Shown: positions 1,894-16,216 of the stretch, piece after piece
Layout of the letters: each line of letters starts with the position of its first letter
How positions within the stretch are numbered: the stretch's first letter is position 1
Assembly: GCF_000690725.1 (NCBI RefSeq)
Contig: NW_007578739.1
Span: forward strand, 60,997 to 77,212
Origin: Stegastes partitus
Taxonomy: Eukaryota
Direction: 5' to 3'
DNA length: 16,216 bases
Notes under the pieces: generated by a model
The model's database searches: none
Told to the model about the DNA's origin: nothing
What the model saw: only the letters and a program-made list of their open reading frames with translations
Made by a program: the position numbers and the translations under genes

Positions 1894-1969
1894 TAGCTCA
1901 GCTGTAGTCCCTGATTGTTCCACCAGGGGGAGCCTCTGACTATTCAATACTGTAGAGACCAGAGGAGGC
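1894..1969 (+). repeat. 5' part of an interspersed repeat, the same family as the intron 8 copies (..ctgtagtccctgattgttccaccagggggagcctctgactattcaatactgtagagaccagaggaggc)
   Basis: About 85% similar to 8511-8590 and to 8160-8205. Confidence 0.7.
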
Positions 1970-2594
1970 ATCATTCATGCTGTGTTCGTATTTGGACGCG
2001 TTTACAAGTTGACTCGCTTCATTCGCGCGTCTGCCAGGAATTCCCGCCCGTTTCCTGCCATTTTCCAATGTGCTATCATCAAACATGGCTGTGCTCGACA
2101 ACACTGCTGCTTTGTAACTGCTGTGGAAGGCCCAGAAACGATGGAGATCCAGACGCCGCCGTGTCTAGGTCCATCAGCTCCTCCAGAGAAGCATATAGCT
2201 CGGGGAGTTCCACGGCCTTCTCCAGGAGCTGCCCCTGGGTGATGACTGCTTCCAGCGCTATTTTTGGCTGACCCAGTTTGACAACCTGTTGGAGAGGATT
2301 GGTACCAGGACAACCCTCCAGGATACTAGGATACGTCACCAGAGGTTCTCAACACTGATTGGCCATCATGGCATGAATGTTCACTTGAGTTCAGATTTTT
2401 CAACTTGCGCGAATTTGCGTCATTTGCGCCTTTCGCTCTTTTAATGCAGCAGGATTCGTGTCATTTGCGCAGCGGTATTCGCGCCGCAGGACGTGTACTT
2501 GCGTCTAATCGCGTCTTCACATTGACTTTACATGTAAATCATTTGCGCGAATGATTTTACATGCATCTGGTGTGAACACAACATCGGACTACAG
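1970..2594. mobile_element. About 625-bp segment interrupting the intron 3 repeat copy; candidate nested non-autonomous element with a CpG-rich interior and 'atttgcgc' subrepeats
   Basis: The flanking halves (1894-1969 and 2595-2700) are contiguous in the intron 8 copies. The ends show imperfect inverted similarity (catgctgtgttcg vs gtgaacacaacatcgg). The interior has repeated (c)atttgcgc(g) motifs and a near-palindrome, aaatcatttgcgcgaatgattt, at 2538-2560. Confidence 0.45.
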
Positions 2595-2700
2595 ATAGTT
2601 TATGTTGGCAAGCAGAGAGCATTGTGGGAGTTTAGCTAGCAACGGGCACCATGACAAAGACTTCTGTGCAGGTTACTGACCTCCAGCTGACTCAGACCAG
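2595..2700 (+). repeat. 3' part of the same interspersed repeat (agtttatgttggcaagcagagagcattgtgggagtttagctagcaacgggcaccatgacaaagacttctgtgcaggt...)
   Basis: Matches 8590-8665 and 8205-8290 (gttggcaagcagag...caccatgaca..cttctg). Confidence 0.7.
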
Positions 2701-2943: not shown

Positions 2944-3075
2944 GTACATACATCCCACGGAAGGAGGTGGTGGTTCTGGAGACCATCAAGGCCACAGTGA
3001 TCCGTGAGAACCAGGCCATCAGGCTGAGAGCTCGCAAGGAGGGCCAAGACCGAGGAGGAGTCCAACGGGTCACAG
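2944..3075 (+). CDS. mvp: MVP coding exon 4 ([45 protein letters not shown])
   Basis: Acceptor tgtttcag|GT at 2942-2943 and donor G|gtaaca at 3076. Matches human [33 protein letters not shown]...RVTG. The phase-1 ends are consistent with exon 3 and exon 5. Confidence 0.9.
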
Positions 3076-3646
3076 GTAACACACTCACCTGGACACACCT
3101 GTAGGAGTGTGACTGCAAAATTCTGCATGATTTATAGCCTCTCCACTCTTTCTCTACTCAGTACCTCAGCTGTAGGAAGATGCTTCACCATGCTGAATGT
3201 ATCTTCCAACAACTTGCTCCTCTGTTCACTGTTTGTTTGCATTTTTAAAAAATCCATCCAGGATGTGAATCTGGTTCAAGCAAACTTTTGATTTTTTTCA
3301 AATGTTGAAGTGTCACATGTAGACACGTGACGTCTCGATTCTTAAGCTCAGATTTGTTGAAGCTTTCTAACAGAATCACAGATGAGTTGTCCAAGGACGG
3401 TTTCATTTTCATAGTTTTTTTTTGCCACATTTTGGGTTCAGATGGTTAAAGGCACGATCTGCATAATGTGCTGCATTCAGTGGCAACCAGGAATTTTCGA
3501 CTTTTCAATTTAAAATTAAAGATCGCACCACCAGAAGTTGATTTTTTTTTTACTCCGTAACCCAACGTATTCATTTCACCCTTGTGCCATTAAAAGTTAG
3601 TTAGTTTCACCTGTGACTGAACCACCTGTCCCCGTGTGTTGTCCAG

Positions 3647-3741: not shown

Positions 3742-4573
3742 GTGACTCAGAACTTCGTCGACTTCCTAAACTCTTAAGTCTGATGATGTGTTCGAGCTGC
3801 TGCTGACTTCTTATGATCTCAGATAACTCATTTACTTCCTTTATTTCAGCGTTGCACAATGTATTATTCACACTGAGTGCCGTTTCATGTTCTTTATGCA
3901 AAAGTTGTTTCAGGTCCGTTGGACAGAGCTGCAGCTAACTATTAGTTTCACTTTTGATTATTTTCTGGATTAATCAGTTAGTTGTGAAAAGTGTGGATCA
4001 GCATTCCTTCAGATTGCTCAGATTATTCAGTTTACTGCCACAGAGGAGGAAAGAAACCAGAAAATATTCACATTTAAAGCTGCAATCGCAGAATTGAGAC
4101 TGTTTTTATAAAAATATTATTGCATTGATCATCAAAATAGTTACCAACTGTTGATGTTTGATTGCTTCGGCTGAAGAAAACTTTAAATGGAGACCTAAAT
4201 AACGTAGTGTGTTTATCTGCATGACTGTATAAAACATGAAACTGTGTTAATTTGGAAAAATCAAGTCTTTGTTGTAACATATCCCTTTTTTCATTATTAA
4301 TTTATTCATCTGCATAAGAGGAGAGAAACTAATATGCATTTTTTAGCAGGAAAATAAATTTAGATCAACATGGATTTGAAAAGTCTTAACTCAACTGTAA
4401 TAAAAACTAAACTCATGTATCGCTAAACAGCAGCAGCTCCCATTAGGGCCACATTTCACATGTCTGTAGCTTCTAAGCTGCTGTCGATGTCTGAGCTGCA
4501 TCTGTGTGGTTCAGGTTCGTTGCACACAGCTGCAGGTTTGTGGTGTATTTACACTGACTTCCTGTCTCTCCAG

Positions 4574-5666: not shown

Positions 5667-7327
5667 GTGAGAATCACCACCCAGCCTCGTTACTGGGGTG
5701 TAAACAATTTAATAAGGCACAAGTTTGTCTGAAAATTGCAGCCCTGAATCTTAACAATGACTTCTTTTGATCGAGTGCTCAGTGTAGAGACCTAAAAATT
5801 TGTCATATTCAGCTTTCTAGAAGTCCTTAAAAAGATCATGGGTGGTATGTTGTTCCATCAGGAAAGATAACCAAATGTGTTCCTAAATTCATGTGATATG
5901 TCATGAGAGTCAGTTTATTCTACGTGTCTCGTTTAAAACTGCGCCAAAAACAAATGGTTTGCTCCAGATTCTGCAAAAAACAAAACATTTTGAGCTCCTG
6001 GGTGACTCGGCTGTGAACAACAGTCTCATGACCAAAACTCAGAGTGTTCGGTTGAACTGCAGGCAGTGCTCCAACTCCTGGTGGTTCTGGATGATTCCTG
6101 ACGTTTCCAGAAGGTGAATGAGGTCGACAAAAGTCCACTTTATCAGCAGTCTTTCTCCAACAGGAGCAGAAAGTTAAAAGCTTTCCATCTCTTTCATGCT
6201 CAATAGATCTTGGCAACTTTCAAGTTTATTATTTATTCATGAGTTAATTTATGTCTCCATGTTGAATAAGACTTACATTAAATAAACTCGGCTTAAACTA
6301 AGATTAGCTTCTTATGCTGCAGGTGGAATCTGTTGAACCCTGAAACTGGCCGGCGGATTTGAAAGACGTGCTCTTTTTTAAAAAAACGCAATAAAACAGC
6401 CGTAAAGTGCGAGAACGTTCTACTTCCAGTCCTTTAAAGGATCTTGTGTAAGATGTGGAGGAGCAAGTTGTTGGACGATGCATTCAACACGGGGAAACAT
6501 CTTTCTTCAGCTGACATGCACATAATAGGTTTCTGCAGCTCCACCAAACACAGTTTTTCATGTTTTACAACCTTCGTTTGTCTTCGTGCGTCTCTGTGTG
6601 GAGCTGCTGGACCAGAAAGGAATGAAGCTCAGGGAGGAGCTGGTGTGTAAAGATCGTCCTGTGCAACCGGTCGATCTGAGAAGACAGATTAGAAAAGCAA
6701 ATGCTGTCTTTTCACAGGGGTGTGCTTTGCTGAAAGACCACCGGCAGGTCTATAGAGACTGGTATGAAGCTGCAGGTGTGTCTGTGGACTCTGGGGTTTA
6801 AAGGTGACACCACACCTGCTGTGGTTGGGTTTGGCTCTGCTGCTGCTGTTTATCTGGTTGGTTTCCAGGAGTTACACCTTAAAACGGCAGCAATGAGGTC
6901 AGAGGATTGTTCGCAAACAGCAAGACAAGCAGGTACAAAGTCTGAGCTATAAATTCATTTACAAACTATCAAGCAAACATGTCATTCACATCGTCCCTTT
7001 CCACACAGCAGCAGAAACTTAATTAAATGAGGCGGACATGTGAAGCTAGAATATGGTAGAAACGGGCACTGCCATCTTCTTCTGGAGGCGTCCTGTACAA
7101 TCAGGAGTGAACAGCAGCAGTTTTAGCATTTAACAGTTGAATATGTCTGTCCGGAAATAACATGATGGATACCTGTGATGTCATTCTGTAAAAACAACAA
7201 GTAGAGATCAGTTTTGAAAATAATAGTTGCAGTCACCACATACCAGACACTTATAATGCAGTCCTGACATAATTGTCTGAGGAAGGATGACAAATTCACC
7301 TTTTAATCTGATAAAAGGTCAAATAAA

Positions 7328-7400
7328 TGTAGTGGAGTAAAAAGTCAAAGTCGCCTAAAAGCCTCAAAAGTTACTTGAGTACTTGTTACTTAGCAGCACT
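7328..7400. repeat. Possible fragment of a fish interspersed repeat or MITE (gtagtggagtaaaaagtcaaag...aaaagttacttgagtacttgttactt)
   Basis: The 'agtggagtaaaaagt' and 'tacttgagtacttgttactt' motifs resemble repeat terminal sequences common in teleost genomes. This is a memory-based impression only. Confidence 0.3.
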
Positions 7401-7436
7401 GGTCTGAATGAGGTTTGGATGAAGCTGCTTTGTGTT

Positions 7437-7735
7437 CTTCACTTCCCCATCTTCCCTCCTAACCTGGCTAACCCATCTTCCCCCAACTCTTCTTCTTCTT
7501 CTTCTTCTCTTTTTTCTTATTCTCTTCCCTTCATCCTCACATCGTCCACCCTTTTCATTTCTTCACGTTGTTTTCCTTTCATGATTCTTGTTTTACTCAG
7601 TGCCTCCCTCCATCCCCCTCTCCTTCTCCTTCTCCTCCTCCTCTTCCTCCTCCTCCTCCGCCGCCGCTCCGATGCATCGCCACGTTAACCCTTCTTTCCG
7701 TCCTCCTCCTCTCTCTCCAACGCTCTCTCTGCCAG
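7437..7735 (+). repeat. Extended CT-rich polypyrimidine low-complexity tract, including (CTT)6 and (CTC/TCC)n runs, immediately upstream of exon 8
   Basis: Direct reading. It continues uninterrupted into the exon 8 acceptor. The ORF-track peptides here (poly-S, P and L) are artefacts. Confidence 0.9.
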
Positions 7736-7948
7736 CAGGAGGAAGAGGAGGACGAGGAGGCCCAGCAGGAGGAGAGGGCCAAGCGCTCCCGGAGGAGCGG
7801 TGTCCTGCGTCGCCCCGGAGACCGCTGGATGCTGCGCGGTCCCATCGAGTACGTTCCCCCCGCCACGGTGGAGGTGGTGCTGAGGCAGCAGGCCATCCCG
7901 CTGGACGAGAACGAGGGCATCTACGTCCGGGACATCAAAACTGGAAAG
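7736..7948 (+). CDS. mvp: MVP coding exon 8 ([71 protein letters not shown])
   Basis: The 3' two-thirds matches human [43 protein letters not shown]. Donor AAG|gtccga at 7949. The acceptor sits at the end of a roughly 300-bp CT-rich tract (..ctctctctgccag|CAG) and is a CAGCAG tandem acceptor at 7733-7738. The exact 5' end is less certain; in-frame alternative AGs lie at 7738 and 7765/7768. Confidence 0.75.
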
Positions 7949-7973: not shown

Positions 7974-8295
7974 TTTTGTTGTGTTTCAAAACCAAAGACT
8001 TTACATCAGAGATGTCCTGATCGGATCTCAAAGATCAAGATGGGTGATCTTTAAACTGATTGGTATCAGCTTGGGATGTTCTGATCTCTTTATTTGCCTC
8101 TGATTAATTTCCTATAGATTGCCTCTACTAGTTTGCTGCGAGCTGTATTAGCTCTGCCTCGCACTGTTTAGTCCTGTAGAAACCAGAGGAGGTGGTAGCT
8201 CCATGTTGGCAAGCAGAGCGTATTGTCAAGGTTTAGGTAGTAAAGAGTAAACACCATGACAAAGGCTTCTGTGTGGCGTAATGAGCTCAGCTCTT
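7974..8295 (+). repeat. Tandem-duplicated repeat unit A in intron 8
   Basis: Aligns at roughly 80% identity with 8318-8678. Shared blocks include aaccaaag..tttacatcagagatgtcctgatcggatctcaaagatcaagat, tatcagcttgggatgttctgat, and ccagaggaggtggtagctccatgttggcaagcagagcgtattgtcaaggtttaggtag...caccatgacaaaggcttctgtg. Confidence 0.8.
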
Positions 8296-8317
8296 TTTCA
8301 GGGAAAATAATCTGTTT

Positions 8318-8678
8318 TTGTACTTTTAGTGTCTTTTAACACCAAAAGTGTTAAATCATGGATGTCCTGATCTGATCTCAAAGGTCAGGATTGGAGCAGA
8401 TCAATACATTTTTTTACTGATCGATATCAGCTTGGGATGTCCTGATTAAGGTTATCCTGCTCGGATTCATGTAATATTTGGTGTCTGCTGATGCCATTTA
8501 CCGTTTGTCGGTTAGCTGTAGTACCTGGTTGTTCCACCAGGTGGAGCCTCTTACTGTATTAAACTGTTGCAACCAGAGGAGGCGGCAGTTTATGTTGGCA
8601 AGCAGAGAGTACTGTTCAAGTTTATCTAGTGAAGAGGCACCATGACATCTTCTGAGGCGTAATGAGCCCCAGCCAGAG
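8318..8678 (+). repeat. Tandem-duplicated repeat unit B in intron 8, the most complete copy of the family
   Basis: Same blocks as unit A, plus the 5' 'gctgtagtacctggttgttccaccaggtggagcctcttactg' portion that is also present at 1901-1945. Confidence 0.8.
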
Positions 8679-8824
8679 CTCTGATACTGAATCAAGTTGT
8701 GATCATTTAAGACATGAGCTCTTAACTGTAGTTGGATAAATAATATAACAGAAGTAATATAATAATAATATTAACCCTGCACACTGTCGATCACTCGTTT
8801 GAACTAACGCTGTCCGGCCTCCAG

Positions 8825-9336: not shown

Positions 9337-9675
9337 GTAACTCACAGACACTGAGCTGACTGTACACTCGATATTGAAATTACATAAGAAAGATGATTAA
9401 CCGTAGCAGTTTACTGGAATAAATTCAGAATAAAAAAGATTTTCAATGTTTGCAACTTCTCTTAGTTTTTGCTTCAGTCACGTTTGTCACCGCTGTGGCT
9501 CATTTTTCTCTGCAACATAAAGTCCTGCAGCTCTGTGGACACACAACAACCACAAAGAAGGAGAGACTCAGAAATGTGTTCTGTGTAGAATGACTCAGAA
9601 TGACAAAACAAGTAGAATTTCATTGATCGTTTGTGGTACAAAAATTGCAACCAACCTTTAACCTCGAACTCAGTC

Positions 9676-9710
9676 TTCTTTTTCTTCTTCTTCTTCTTCT
9701 TCTTCTTCTT
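9676..9710 (+). repeat. (CTT)n microsatellite, about 10 pure units, forming the polypyrimidine tract of the exon 11 acceptor
   Basis: Direct reading: cttctttttcttcttcttcttcttcttcttcttcttcag|G. Confidence 0.95.
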
Positions 9711-9713
9711 CAG

Positions 9714-9858
9714 GCACTTTGAGGTGAAGTCTCCAGCCTCTGCTGGCGAGTCAGCAGCTCTGTTCTCGGTTCCTGACTTTGTGGGAGACGCCTGTAAAGC
9801 CATCGCCTCCAGGATCCGAGGAGCAGTCGCCTCCGTGCAGTTCGACGATTTCCACAAG
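9714..9858 (+). CDS. mvp: MVP coding exon 11 ([49 protein letters not shown])
   Basis: The acceptor is a (CTT)n tract, ..cttcttcttcag|G, at 9712-9713. Donor AAG|gtttgt at 9859. Matches human HFEV...[35 protein letters not shown]. Confidence 0.9.
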
Positions 9859-12349: not shown

Positions 12350-13406
12350 GTACGTTAACACGAGCTCACTAAAGTAGACGGCCAACAGCAAGCTTCACAT
12401 GAAAAAGAGATTTAAATGTTATTTTAAACCTCAGTTAATAAAAACTCCTGAAAAGCCTAAAAACTCTCCAATATGGTGAAGCATCCAAAAAGCTGTAGCT
12501 GGCATTAACCAGAGAGGAGAGTTTGTGTCGGCAAATACTCATACAATCAGTAAACTCTCATGTATTTGGCAGTTATGATCAGGACTGATGCTCTTACTCA
12601 GTGGAAGTGAAAAAATAATGATAGTTTCTAATATTTTTATGGCTTTTTGGCTTCTTTTGTCCTCTCAGGTGTGAGTTTTTATTAAAAACCTGACTGTGTA
12701 AATAAGAAATGATGCATTTAATCACTGAAGTTAATCAGCGACAGACTGTGATCATCAAAAGAAGAATCTTCTATTCATTATATTATATGGAATAAAAAAA
12801 CAACAACCATGGCGTCATGTAAACAAACCGGCATTTAAAGGGTTAAAATCCTAAATATCAATGAGTGTTTGGTAATTATGATCAGAACTCACGGAGAGCA
12901 AAAGAAATACGCAACTGAAACTGAGAAATAATCATAATACATAACATTTTTGGCGTTATTGATGTTTTGTCCTGAAGGACTTTTTTAAATTGCTGCCTGA
13001 GTGCTAAAGGAAGTGAGAACAGAGCAGCACAGTCTGTCCAACTCTAACCTAGTCAACAGGTTTTTATTACAGAATCCAAGATGACTTTTCCTCTGGGTTA
13101 GCAAAAAAAATCTTCTATCATTAGAAAAAAACAAAGAACGGAGGGTTTCGTGTCTGTAACTGTTTGTAGGTTTAGTTTAGTCGAATGTAAAGTGACTTTA
13201 AGTAAAGATTATATTCATGGTGGGTTATTTTCTCGATGGACCAATCAGCTGTTTGGTCTGAAAATGATGAAGGTGTGCTTCAGTGTTTCCTCAAATGTCT
13301 CGTTTTATCCAAACATGTTCAGTTTACTGTCACAGAGGAGAAAATAAGCTGCAGCCACAGAACTGAAGCTGTCGTAGTTTTAATCCAAGCCTGTGTGCGT
13401 CTGTAG

Positions 13407-13595: not shown

Positions 13596-14461
13596 GTGCT
13601 GTACCGACACCACGTCGTCACTCACGTCACAACACTAACGCCTCCATTTAAACCAAAGTCTGTTACATTTTAATAGAGATCTGAGGTTAGAAAGTGAAGT
13701 TCAAGCAAACTGGTCCCAATATTAAGTTAAAATGCTCTGAATGTTTACTACAGACGCTACATTACTGCTATTATTGAAAATTATTATTATTATTTACAAA
13801 AAGAAAACACAGTTAGTTATAACAACACTATATTCAAATTCCACTATTTCTGTTAAATACGTCAACTTACTGGTATTTATGAAGAACATTTGTTGAACCA
13901 AAGAGAAATAACATTAGAAATTAACTTATCAGGTTCAAACATGACTGTTTATACCCACAGGGTGTTTGGGTTTTACCGTTTAATTAGAAGGTTGGGAAAT
14001 GCACCATTCATTTCTGAGTCTTGAGAAGTTTATTTGATCTATAAATTGCCAGAAAACAGTGAAAAATATCCATCAGAGTTCGGAACAAGTCTAAATGATC
14101 GTCTTCAGACTGTCAGAAACTCAGAGATTCAGTCAAAATGTCAAATATTCATGTTTATAGGAGAGTCTTTGGGCCTTTTGTCAAACTGTGATGGATCCTT
14201 TTCACTGTTTTCTAGAATTTTATAAAGCCAATAACTGAAAATATATCAGATTAGACGCTAATGAATATAGGCTATAATTTTAACTTGTATGTTCAGTAGT
14301 CAAACACGTCGTAAACACATTTTTAAGTAAGTAATTCGTGAAGTGATAATAATAGTAAATAAAAAGTTACTTAAAATACACATAATGCAGTACAACATAA
14401 AACGCCTCCTTGAATTGGTGCAGAACTTTATTCTCTCTTTGTTTTGATGTCCGTCGTGCAG

Positions 14462-16079: not shown

Positions 16080-16216
16080 TTTGGATTGGTTTCGGCATTA
16101 GGTTTGGATTGGGTTCTGACTGATTGGGTTTAGACTTGAGACTTAACTTTGGATTGGTTTCGGCATTAGGTTTGCATTGGGTTCTGACTGATTGGGTTTA
16201 GACTTGAGACTTAACT
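16080..16216 (+). repeat. Tandem repeat with a 68-bp period, 2 copies, truncated by the window end (tttggattggtttcggcattaggttt[g/c][g/c]attgggttctgactgattgggtttagacttgagacttaact)
   Basis: Units 16080-16147 and 16148-16215 differ at about 2 positions. The 'gattgg' submotif recurs inside each unit. Confidence 0.9.

Follow-up and report, generated by a model that had tools for sequence, protein, structure and literature searches.

The third intron of the gene for the major vault protein (MVP) of Stegastes partitus contains a repeat whose two halves are held apart by several hundred base pairs, and the question raised by this locus is what these base pairs are: a transposon that has landed in the repeat, a part of the repeat itself, or a CpG-island-like module that regulates the gene. 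We addressed it in a stretch of 16,216 nucleotides around the intron (the window, whose coordinates are used below). The segment 1978-2583 is very probably a non-autonomous deletion derivative of a teleost PIF/Harbinger transposon, which lies in the orientation of MVP and was inserted into an older repeat of about 190 bp in intron 3.

The split repeat in the MVP gene

MVP lies on the plus strand of the window. The translation of its joined exons is 90-92% identical to several fish major vault proteins, which agrees with the earlier identification of the gene, and its introns are correctly numbered 3 and 8 if the exon that carries the ATG is counted as exon 1. These homologues are the closest matches that we found, and at 90-92% identity they are too far for their introns to be compared with those of the window.

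A repeat comparison of the whole window reveals an interspersed repeat of about 190 bp, which is unbroken in intron 8 (8505-8690) and broken in intron 3. The halves had been described as contiguous in the former and separated in the latter; this is what we observe, and the gap measures 627 bp. The features that define the split are the following.

1575-1699 and 2944-3066, plus strand: the MVP exons between which the insert-bearing intron lies (intron 3 when the ATG exon is exon 1).
1891-1969: left half of host repeat copy A, 81% identical to 8505-8583.
2597-2715: right half of host repeat copy A; 2597-2639 is 86% identical to 8587-8629 and 2647-2683 is 81% identical to 8252-8288.
8505-8690: host repeat copy B, uninterrupted, a paralogous empty site (from the repeat comparison and an alignment).
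8156-8290: host repeat copy C, partial, the product of a local tandem duplication (about 350-390 bp) inside intron 8.

Because copy C sits in this tandem duplication, copies B and C count as one independent witness and not two, and the number of independent copies of the host repeat within the window is two (A on the one hand, B and C together on the other). An Rfam search over the entire window, at the gathering threshold, gives no family. ARAGORN finds no tRNA, and a tRNA-derived SINE origin of the repeat is therefore without support. The sequence ATCATTCRGACTACA may also belong to the host repeat.

Ends of the inserted segment and related elements

The element occurs once in the window. Its limits were placed by aligning it to the ends of two related elements, referred to as L127 and L122, which gives the following arrangement between the two halves of copy A.

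1970-1974: ATCAT, five junction bases that have no counterpart in host copies B and C or in the transposon relatives.
1975-1977: TCA, candidate left target-site duplication, placed by end homology with L127 and L122.
1978-2583, plus strand: probable non-autonomous, internally deleted PIF/Harbinger transposon of 606 bp, with 70-80% DNA identity to the short elements L122, L123, L129 and L127.
1978-1987, plus strand: 5' terminal inverted repeat (TIR), TGCTGTGTTC, in a 10/11 inverted match with 2574-2584; its core is common to L122 (GCTGTGCGTTCATAC) and L127 (TGGGGGCGTTCACA).
2574-2583, plus strand: 3' TIR, GAACACAACA, aligned with GAACGCACCA of L127, which is there adjoined by the target-site duplication TTA.
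2584-2586: TCG, candidate right target-site duplication; the homologous position holds TTA in L127, TAA in L129 and TCA in L122.
2587-2596: ten junction bases, GACTACAGAT, unmatched in host copies B and C; the final ones may correspond to GGYAG of the host repeat.

The segment had been said to have imperfect inverted termini, and such termini are found just inside the junctions: ATGCTGTGTTC (1977-1987) and GAACACAACAT (2574-2584) pair at 10 of 11 bases, a count that includes one flanking base, and the inverted match of the terminal 30 nt is equalled in 15 of 5000 shuffles (about 0.3%). A second symmetric pair, perfect over 10 bp, lies about 50 nt further inward (TCATTCGCGC at 2019-2028 and GCGCGAATGA at 2545-2554) and is equalled in 16 of 5000 shuffles. 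When the left end is aligned with gaps to the reverse complement of the right end, the score of 32 falls within the range of the shuffles (mean 20.6, maximum 34), which is why only these two short symmetric blocks are counted as inverted repeats.

Relatives of the element are present in three other assemblies, which are likely those of fish. L122, L123 and L129 are contigs of GCA_002003405.1, in which at least three copies were seen, while L126 and L127 represent one locus in GCA_977066275.1 and GCA_977066305.1. No complete autonomous element is among the relatives that were compared. A BLASTN comparison of 1850-2750 with these loci gives 70-80% identity over the 5' subterminal region, the start of the transposase and the last 110 nt or so. 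The parts of this query that belong to the host repeat (1850-1969 and 2597-2750) match none of the relative loci. The relatives thus share their ends with the window copy but have unrelated flanks, which shows that the element is a member of a dispersed family and not a part of the host repeat. According to the earlier note, the insertion would be refuted if other copies of the repeat contained the segment contiguously; at the other loci the segment has flanks that are unlike the repeat. The nested insertion proposed there is borne out, since the two halves are contiguous at 8505-8629, the element has ends of its own and its relatives sit in unrelated surroundings.

Like the window copy, the elements of L122, L123, L129, L126 and L127 have a TIR, a subterminal ACTCGCT(T/A)CATTCGC, a transposase start, a deletion and a 3' end of about 110 nt, which terminates in GTGAAC(A/G)CA(A/C)C in the relatives as in the window. 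They differ from it in species and locus and in their internal lengths (about 590-945 bp); besides, about 45 nt that follow the TIR of L122 and L127, ahead of their subterminal region, are absent from the left end of the window copy. They could have been lost by an internal deletion from one TTC(G) stretch to another, or it could be that the left TIR of the window copy is instead an internal look-alike in a copy truncated at its 5' end.

The clearest junctions are those of L127, where TIRs TGGGGGCGTTCACA and TGTGAACGCACCA are flanked by TTA on both sides. There, the element is surrounded by a miniature inverted-repeat transposable element (MITE) with its own inverted ends (at 6231-6262 and 7410-7441 of that locus), and deleting the element together with one TTA restores the palindrome GGCTTAGACTAAGCC of this MITE. 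L127 contains no uninterrupted copy of the surrounding MITE, so that the empty-site argument rests there on the restored palindrome. In L129 the right end is followed by TAA and the left end is beyond the contig; L122 has GTA or TAT on the left versus TCA on the right. Other copies, to which the earlier note had looked for termini and target-site duplications, thus define the termini and give TTA/TTA in L127, but the flanks of the window copy, TCA and TCG, agree at two of three bases only; neither is the usual TWA, and the difference between them is of the CpG-to-CpA type.

A metagenome scan with the pattern TGTGTTCN{15,45}TCATTCGCGCG returned 120 loci, all of which are chance matches by BLAST, the pattern being too short for the database.

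The transposase remnant and the superfamily

What can be read inside the element is given by three features.

2085-2339, plus strand: remnant of a transposase N-terminus, 85 codons from the ATG at 2085, interrupted in frame by stops at 2115-2117, 2166-2168 and 2196-2198 but free of frameshifts.
2079-2339, minus strand: 86-aa open reading frame, which is not a gene but this remnant read in antisense; its codons are in phase with those of the opposite strand.
2340-2399, plus strand: internal non-coding segment downstream of the deletion, common to L122, L123 and L129.

The minus-strand reading frames of 86 and 103 aa which had been described are both present, and, as had been stated, they have no recognisable domain: Pfam scans of the minus- and plus-strand reading frames of the window give nothing apart from one weak match (TopoV_HHH, E 0.9), which we dismissed. 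The exact sequences of both minus-strand frames are not on record, and a word-indexed protein search with the minus-frame and plus-frame translations gave no match, because too few 5-mers are shared. A phmmer search with the 86-aa frame against 1.84 billion representative proteins matched eleven short reading frames (63-235 aa, 42-57% identity), some of them from Cirrhinus mrigala, a cyprinid fish. The matched frames sit on fish contigs, antisense to the same transposase region, and the opposite strand of these contigs encodes what looks like a transposase start, such as LLEFHHLLQVLHLNDDRFQRYF in L122. Three phmmer matches (P0121, P0122 and P0132) were discarded as spurious, since these proteins are repetitive.

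The translations show that the informative coding strand is the plus strand, and that the minus-strand frames are an antisense image of the transposase remnant. The minus-strand peptide QLLEKAVEL, for instance, is what one reads when the plus-strand codons for EFHGLLQEL are reverse-complemented with their phase kept. The translation from the ATG at 2085 reads MAVLDNTAAL, stop, LLWKAQKRWRSRRRRV, stop, VHQLLQRSI, stop, LGEFHGLLQELPLGDDCFQRYFWLTQFDNLLERIGTRTTLQDTRIRHQR. Aligned from its first methionine, it is 54% identical over 87 aa to an open 100-codon start in L127 (BLASTP, E 1e-21), and a tblastn search of the whole window with the N-terminus of L127 finds 2085-2339 with an E value of 8e-20. 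The remnant is also 58% identical over 48 aa to a longer, decayed copy, L121 (E 3e-14), whose downstream frames match the Pfam family DDE_Tnp_4 (PF13359) with an E value of 3.4e-8, above the curated cut-off. More generally, when an intronic block of balanced GC content has reading frames on both strands, these can stem from a single dead transposase fragment, read once in sense and once in antisense. It may be added that the strand that is informative here is the one missing from the earlier account of the reading frames, which covered the minus strand.

The superfamily can be named by comparison with Harbinger-2_SS of Salmo salar (Repbase). The transposase of this element is 42% identical to the remnant over 65 aa (E 7e-10), with a further match at E 2e-8 and identities that range from 42 to 48%; its sequence was taken from the machine-read supplement of a survey of Harbinger elements in teleosts (PMC9179366), whose text may contain errors. 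The pattern RRRxVW...GEFHxLxQELRL...F..YF....QFD.LL..(I/V)G.R....DT.YR aligns with the plus frame. In contrast to Harbinger-2_SS, with which it was compared as protein, the window has about 85 codons with three stops and no DDE domain.

PIF/Harbinger elements have short TIRs, 3-bp target-site duplications and two genes, whose products are both required for transposition (PMC9179366; PMC9710019). In autonomous copies, the second of these genes encodes a DNA-binding protein of the Myb-like (SANT/MADF) kind. The short TIRs are present here as TGCTGTGTTC and GAACACAACA. The length of the TIRs in the superfamily is given as 25-50 bp in PMC9179366 and as about 15 bp in PMC9710019; those of the window are shorter than the former and close to the latter. 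A transposase of the DDE_Tnp_4 type is represented by its N-terminus only, through its homology to Harbinger-2_SS and L121. The window copy has retained both short TIRs, the CpG-rich subterminal regions and, of the transposase gene, the 5' leader with about 85 initial codons; the DDE catalytic domain, any second (Myb-like) gene and most of the interior are missing. The assignment to PIF/Harbinger is thus based on the N-terminal codons and on the relatives.

The earlier suggestion of a MITE or another non-autonomous element is therefore supported, and the superfamily can be added to it. A MITE is small (under about 800 bp), has TIRs and a target-site duplication but no coding capacity, and occurs in many homogeneous copies. 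The size (606 bp) and the TIRs fit a MITE, but a fragment of a gene can still be recognised in the copy, so that "deletion derivative" is the stricter term. The segment is best filed as an animal counterpart of the Tourist-type derivatives of plants. mPing, a Tourist-like MITE, is described in PMC2836001 and PMC9921582 as a deletion derivative of the rice element Ping which is mobilised in trans. Like the window element, mPing is a short PIF/Harbinger derivative that has kept its ends; unlike it, mPing belongs to a plant, has a high copy number and was recently active, and the window copy differs from mPing in that part of the transposase gene can still be recognised in it.

Subterminal arrays, junctions and history of the element

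On either side of the coding remnant, the element contains repeated motifs.

1988-2084, plus strand: CpG-rich 5' subterminal region, with the motif TCATTCGCGC at 2019-2028; ACTCGCTTCATTCGC is conserved in L122 and L127.
2400-2573, plus strand: 3' subterminal array, with ATTYGCGC or GCGCGAAT at 2407, 2422, 2463, 2477, 2541 and 2545, including a dyad at 2530-2563.

The motif ATTYGCGC occurs seven times in the insert (five on the plus strand and two on the minus strand), when 0.07-0.14 occurrences are expected, and nowhere else in the 16 kb. At least four copies of "atttgcgc" had been counted before; this holds if the C/T variant is included, but not for the exact motif, ATTTGCGC, which occurs three times (at 2422, 2463 and 2541). 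The palindrome with 8-bp arms, also pointed out before, is present at 2536-2557 as 11-nt arms with one mismatch and a perfect core of 8 nt, and it extends to 2530-2563. The final 110 nt or so of the 3' region are conserved in L122, L123, L127 and L129.

The CpG content follows these arrays. The observed/expected ratio of CpG is 0.93 in the insert, 0.64 in the window and 0-0.46 in the remainder of the intron; within the insert, it is 1.52 in 1970-2060, 1.72 in 2391-2596 and 0.40 in the interior (2061-2390). The insert is thus CpG-rich overall, as had been noted, but its interior, to which this richness had been attributed, is CpG-poor: the CpG richness belongs to the subterminal motif arrays. 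In the relatives, the strict motif is found twice in L127 and is absent from L122 and L123, and the ratio over the element is 0.88 in the former and 0.51-0.65 in the latter, whose CpG motifs, unlike those of the window copy, have mostly decayed. This loss fits a decay of CpG in what would be older copies, yet it weakens the argument from conservation.

These ratios bear on the idea that the element, whatever its origin, serves today as a regulatory module of the MVP intron, unmethylated and similar to a CpG island, with arrays that are protected or selected. A classical CpG island has at least 200 bp, a GC content of at least 0.5 and an observed/expected CpG ratio of at least 0.6, and is unmethylated in vivo. 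The insert as a whole has a GC content of 0.498 and a ratio of 0.93, and the window average of 0.64 already passes the latter threshold, so that this criterion discriminates poorly in this genome. The idea draws on the ratios of 1.5-1.7 in the two subterminal blocks, compared with 0.64 in the window, and on the fact that the arrays are far better preserved than those of L122 and L123, while the coding remnant has gathered three stops. However, the source copy may already have carried these stops, in which case the window copy may simply be young; the richness is found in the transposon's own motif arrays only and is a trait of the family (0.88 in L127); and the richest block has a GC content of 0.451, under the usual criterion for islands, compared with 0.521 in the CpG-poor interior. 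We consider a regulatory module very unlikely, and this part of the earlier note is without support in the sequence. In annotations, it would be appropriate to mask the segment as a non-autonomous DNA/PIF-Harbinger element that is nested within another repeat, and to treat it neither as a candidate gene nor as a CpG island or a regulatory module.

It could also be that the host repeat has a long form and that the 627 bp are its interior; the copies of intron 8 would then be derivatives of this form by internal deletion, as MITEs are of their parents. Towards its outer ends, the host repeat shows weak inverted matches: 1901-1915 with 2701-2715 (80%), and 1902-1910 with 2586-2594 (9/9), GGACTACAG being the reverse complement of 1902-1910. 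We estimate, however, that about one 9-bp inverted match per 800 bp or so is to be expected by chance. The junctions are also not entirely accounted for. When the element is excised in silico according to homology, copy A retains 15 nt (ATCAT, one TCA and GACTACA) that copies B and C do not have, and the exact pre-insertion site is therefore not reconstructed; besides, the window contains only two independent host copies with which this can be compared. Against a long form, symmetric ends that belong to the segment itself lie immediately within the junctions, elements at four other loci end in the same terminal sequences with flanks unlike the host repeat, and copy B is already uninterrupted and of full length. 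An origin of the 627 bp within the host repeat is therefore extremely improbable.

Last, the protein similarity could be misleading, and the non-autonomous element could belong to another superfamily of DNA transposons (hAT, P, Helitron, Spy or ISL2EU). The junctions that are diagnostic of other transposons are an 8-bp target-site duplication, TA, TTAA, A/TC...CTRR/T (the slash marks the junction) and AAA/TTT without a duplication. Reading by eye all boundaries that are compatible with the homology, we found no junction diagnostic of hAT, P, Tc1/mariner, piggyBac, Helitron or Spy. We regard another superfamily as hardly credible: the window has no clean TWA duplication, Spy elements, which are relatives of PIF, make no target-site duplication (PMC4122938), and the left junction is A/TC as at the 5' ends of Helitrons, but the plausible boundaries show neither an 8-bp duplication that would suit hAT or P nor TTAA or TA, the right end is not CTRR, the site is not the AAA/TTT that Spy requires, L127 has TTA on both sides, and the N-terminal homology runs from the first methionine over 87 aa and is linked to DDE_Tnp_4 and to a Harbinger element of Repbase.

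For the PIF/Harbinger derivative, the model of how it moved is Harbinger3_DR, a reconstructed active element of zebrafish (Sinzelle et al. 2008, as cited in PMC9710019 and PMC3016246). According to the account of that work given in PMC9710019, the Myb-like protein of this element interacts with the transposase and binds to a subterminal motif of 9 bp. By analogy, (TC)ATTYGCGC, a motif of 8-10 bp that is found near each end and in either orientation, one head-to-head dyad included, would be a candidate binding site of a Myb-like protein, and the short inverted ends would be the sites of cleavage. By what is established for the superfamily, the transposase and the Myb-like DNA-binding protein would have come from a full-length copy at another place in the genome; the Myb-like protein would have bound the repeated subterminal motifs and drawn the transposase to the inverted ends; the element would then have been excised and pasted into a 3-bp target, which was presumably duplicated also in the case of the window copy. 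The window copy would thus have depended, through mobilisation in trans, on proteins encoded by a full-length element elsewhere, and it is presumably inactive now.

It may be that the copy is young and that a Harbinger lineage is still active in this fish, the near-intact arrays being the result either of recent transposition or of a protection from methylation which exposes a group of short, GC-rich protein-binding sites in the MVP intron; we consider this unlikely. Were the family proved to be recently active in this fish, it might be of use as a marker or tool. The element itself is an ordinary genomic fossil, which matters little beyond annotation.

Regarding the choice of target, Harbinger3_DR inserts into the palindrome AAACACCWGGTCTTT (PMC3016246), and the site in the window is unlike AAACACCWGGTCTTT. 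We note that a right-flank pattern, TYR-GRCTWA, is common to three of four independent insertions of the present family; it may be that the family, like Harbinger3_DR, prefers an extended target.

Flanks and nesting of the Harbinger insertions

In three of the four independent insertions of the PIF/Harbinger transposon family, the right flank follows the pattern T(C/T)(A/G)-G(A/G)CT(A/T)A. This common flank could be due to chance or to a target preference.

Right flanks of four independent insertions
Window, 2584-2593, transposon in intron 3 of MVP: TCGGACTAC, fits the pattern
L122 (related short copy in GCA_002003405.1), ~2357-2365: TCAGGCTTA, fits the pattern
L127 (related derivative at a locus present in GCA_977066275.1 and GCA_977066305.1), ~6436-6444: TTAGACTAA, fits the pattern
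L129 (related short copy in GCA_002003405.1): TAACTGTTT, fourth insertion

At L127, the related Harbinger derivative is enclosed in a palindromic MITE with ends GGTTTCACAGACAGGGCTTA (6231-7441). This locus is a second case, in another fish genome, of the nesting of a transposon within a repeat that is seen in the window.

The host repeat and its copies in intron 8

The host repeat is the ~190-bp interspersed repeat that the transposon splits in intron 3. Intron 8 contains a tandem duplication (7974-8300 and 8324-8690) with a period of ~350-390 bp and an identity between units of 74-86%, which takes in the host repeat; the two copies of the latter in this intron are therefore not independent insertions.

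The 5' end of the host repeat, TGTAGCTCAGCTGTAGT, vaguely resembles a tRNA; despite this appearance, no tRNA was found by ARAGORN. The host repeat also includes CCACCAGGGGGAGCC or CCACCAGGTGGAGCC (1920-1934 and 8534-8548), which resembles the CTCF core motif.

The MVP gene and other repeats in the window

The MVP homologues were searched with a query of 358 aa. Among the matches listed, all homologues are at most 620 aa long, the top identity is 92%, and there is no full-length fish MVP (~850 aa), which indicates that the source species has no close match among them. The MVP exon that codes for an acidic run (14 residues) is adjoined by (CTT)n and (TCC)n microsatellites (7473-7800 and 9665-9718).

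The sequence upstream of the MVP start codon (1-900) has a (TG)n run and, after it, degenerate repeats of 34-35 nt that are strongly T-rich (AT skew about -0.7); one further unit of these repeats is present in intron 2 (1444-1477). Two sequences of 57 nt that lie in separate introns (3166-3222 and 6458-6514) form an inverted pair with 86% identity, and are probably two oppositely oriented copies of another interspersed repeat. Direct repeats with 90% identity (4026-4055 and 13318-13347) suggest an additional repeat family. The palindromic structure at 14030-14234, whose arms of 69 nt are 75% complementary and separated by a 67-nt spacer, looks like a MITE. Last, a 68-bp unit is present twice in tandem, with 99% identity, at the extreme end of the window (16080-16215).
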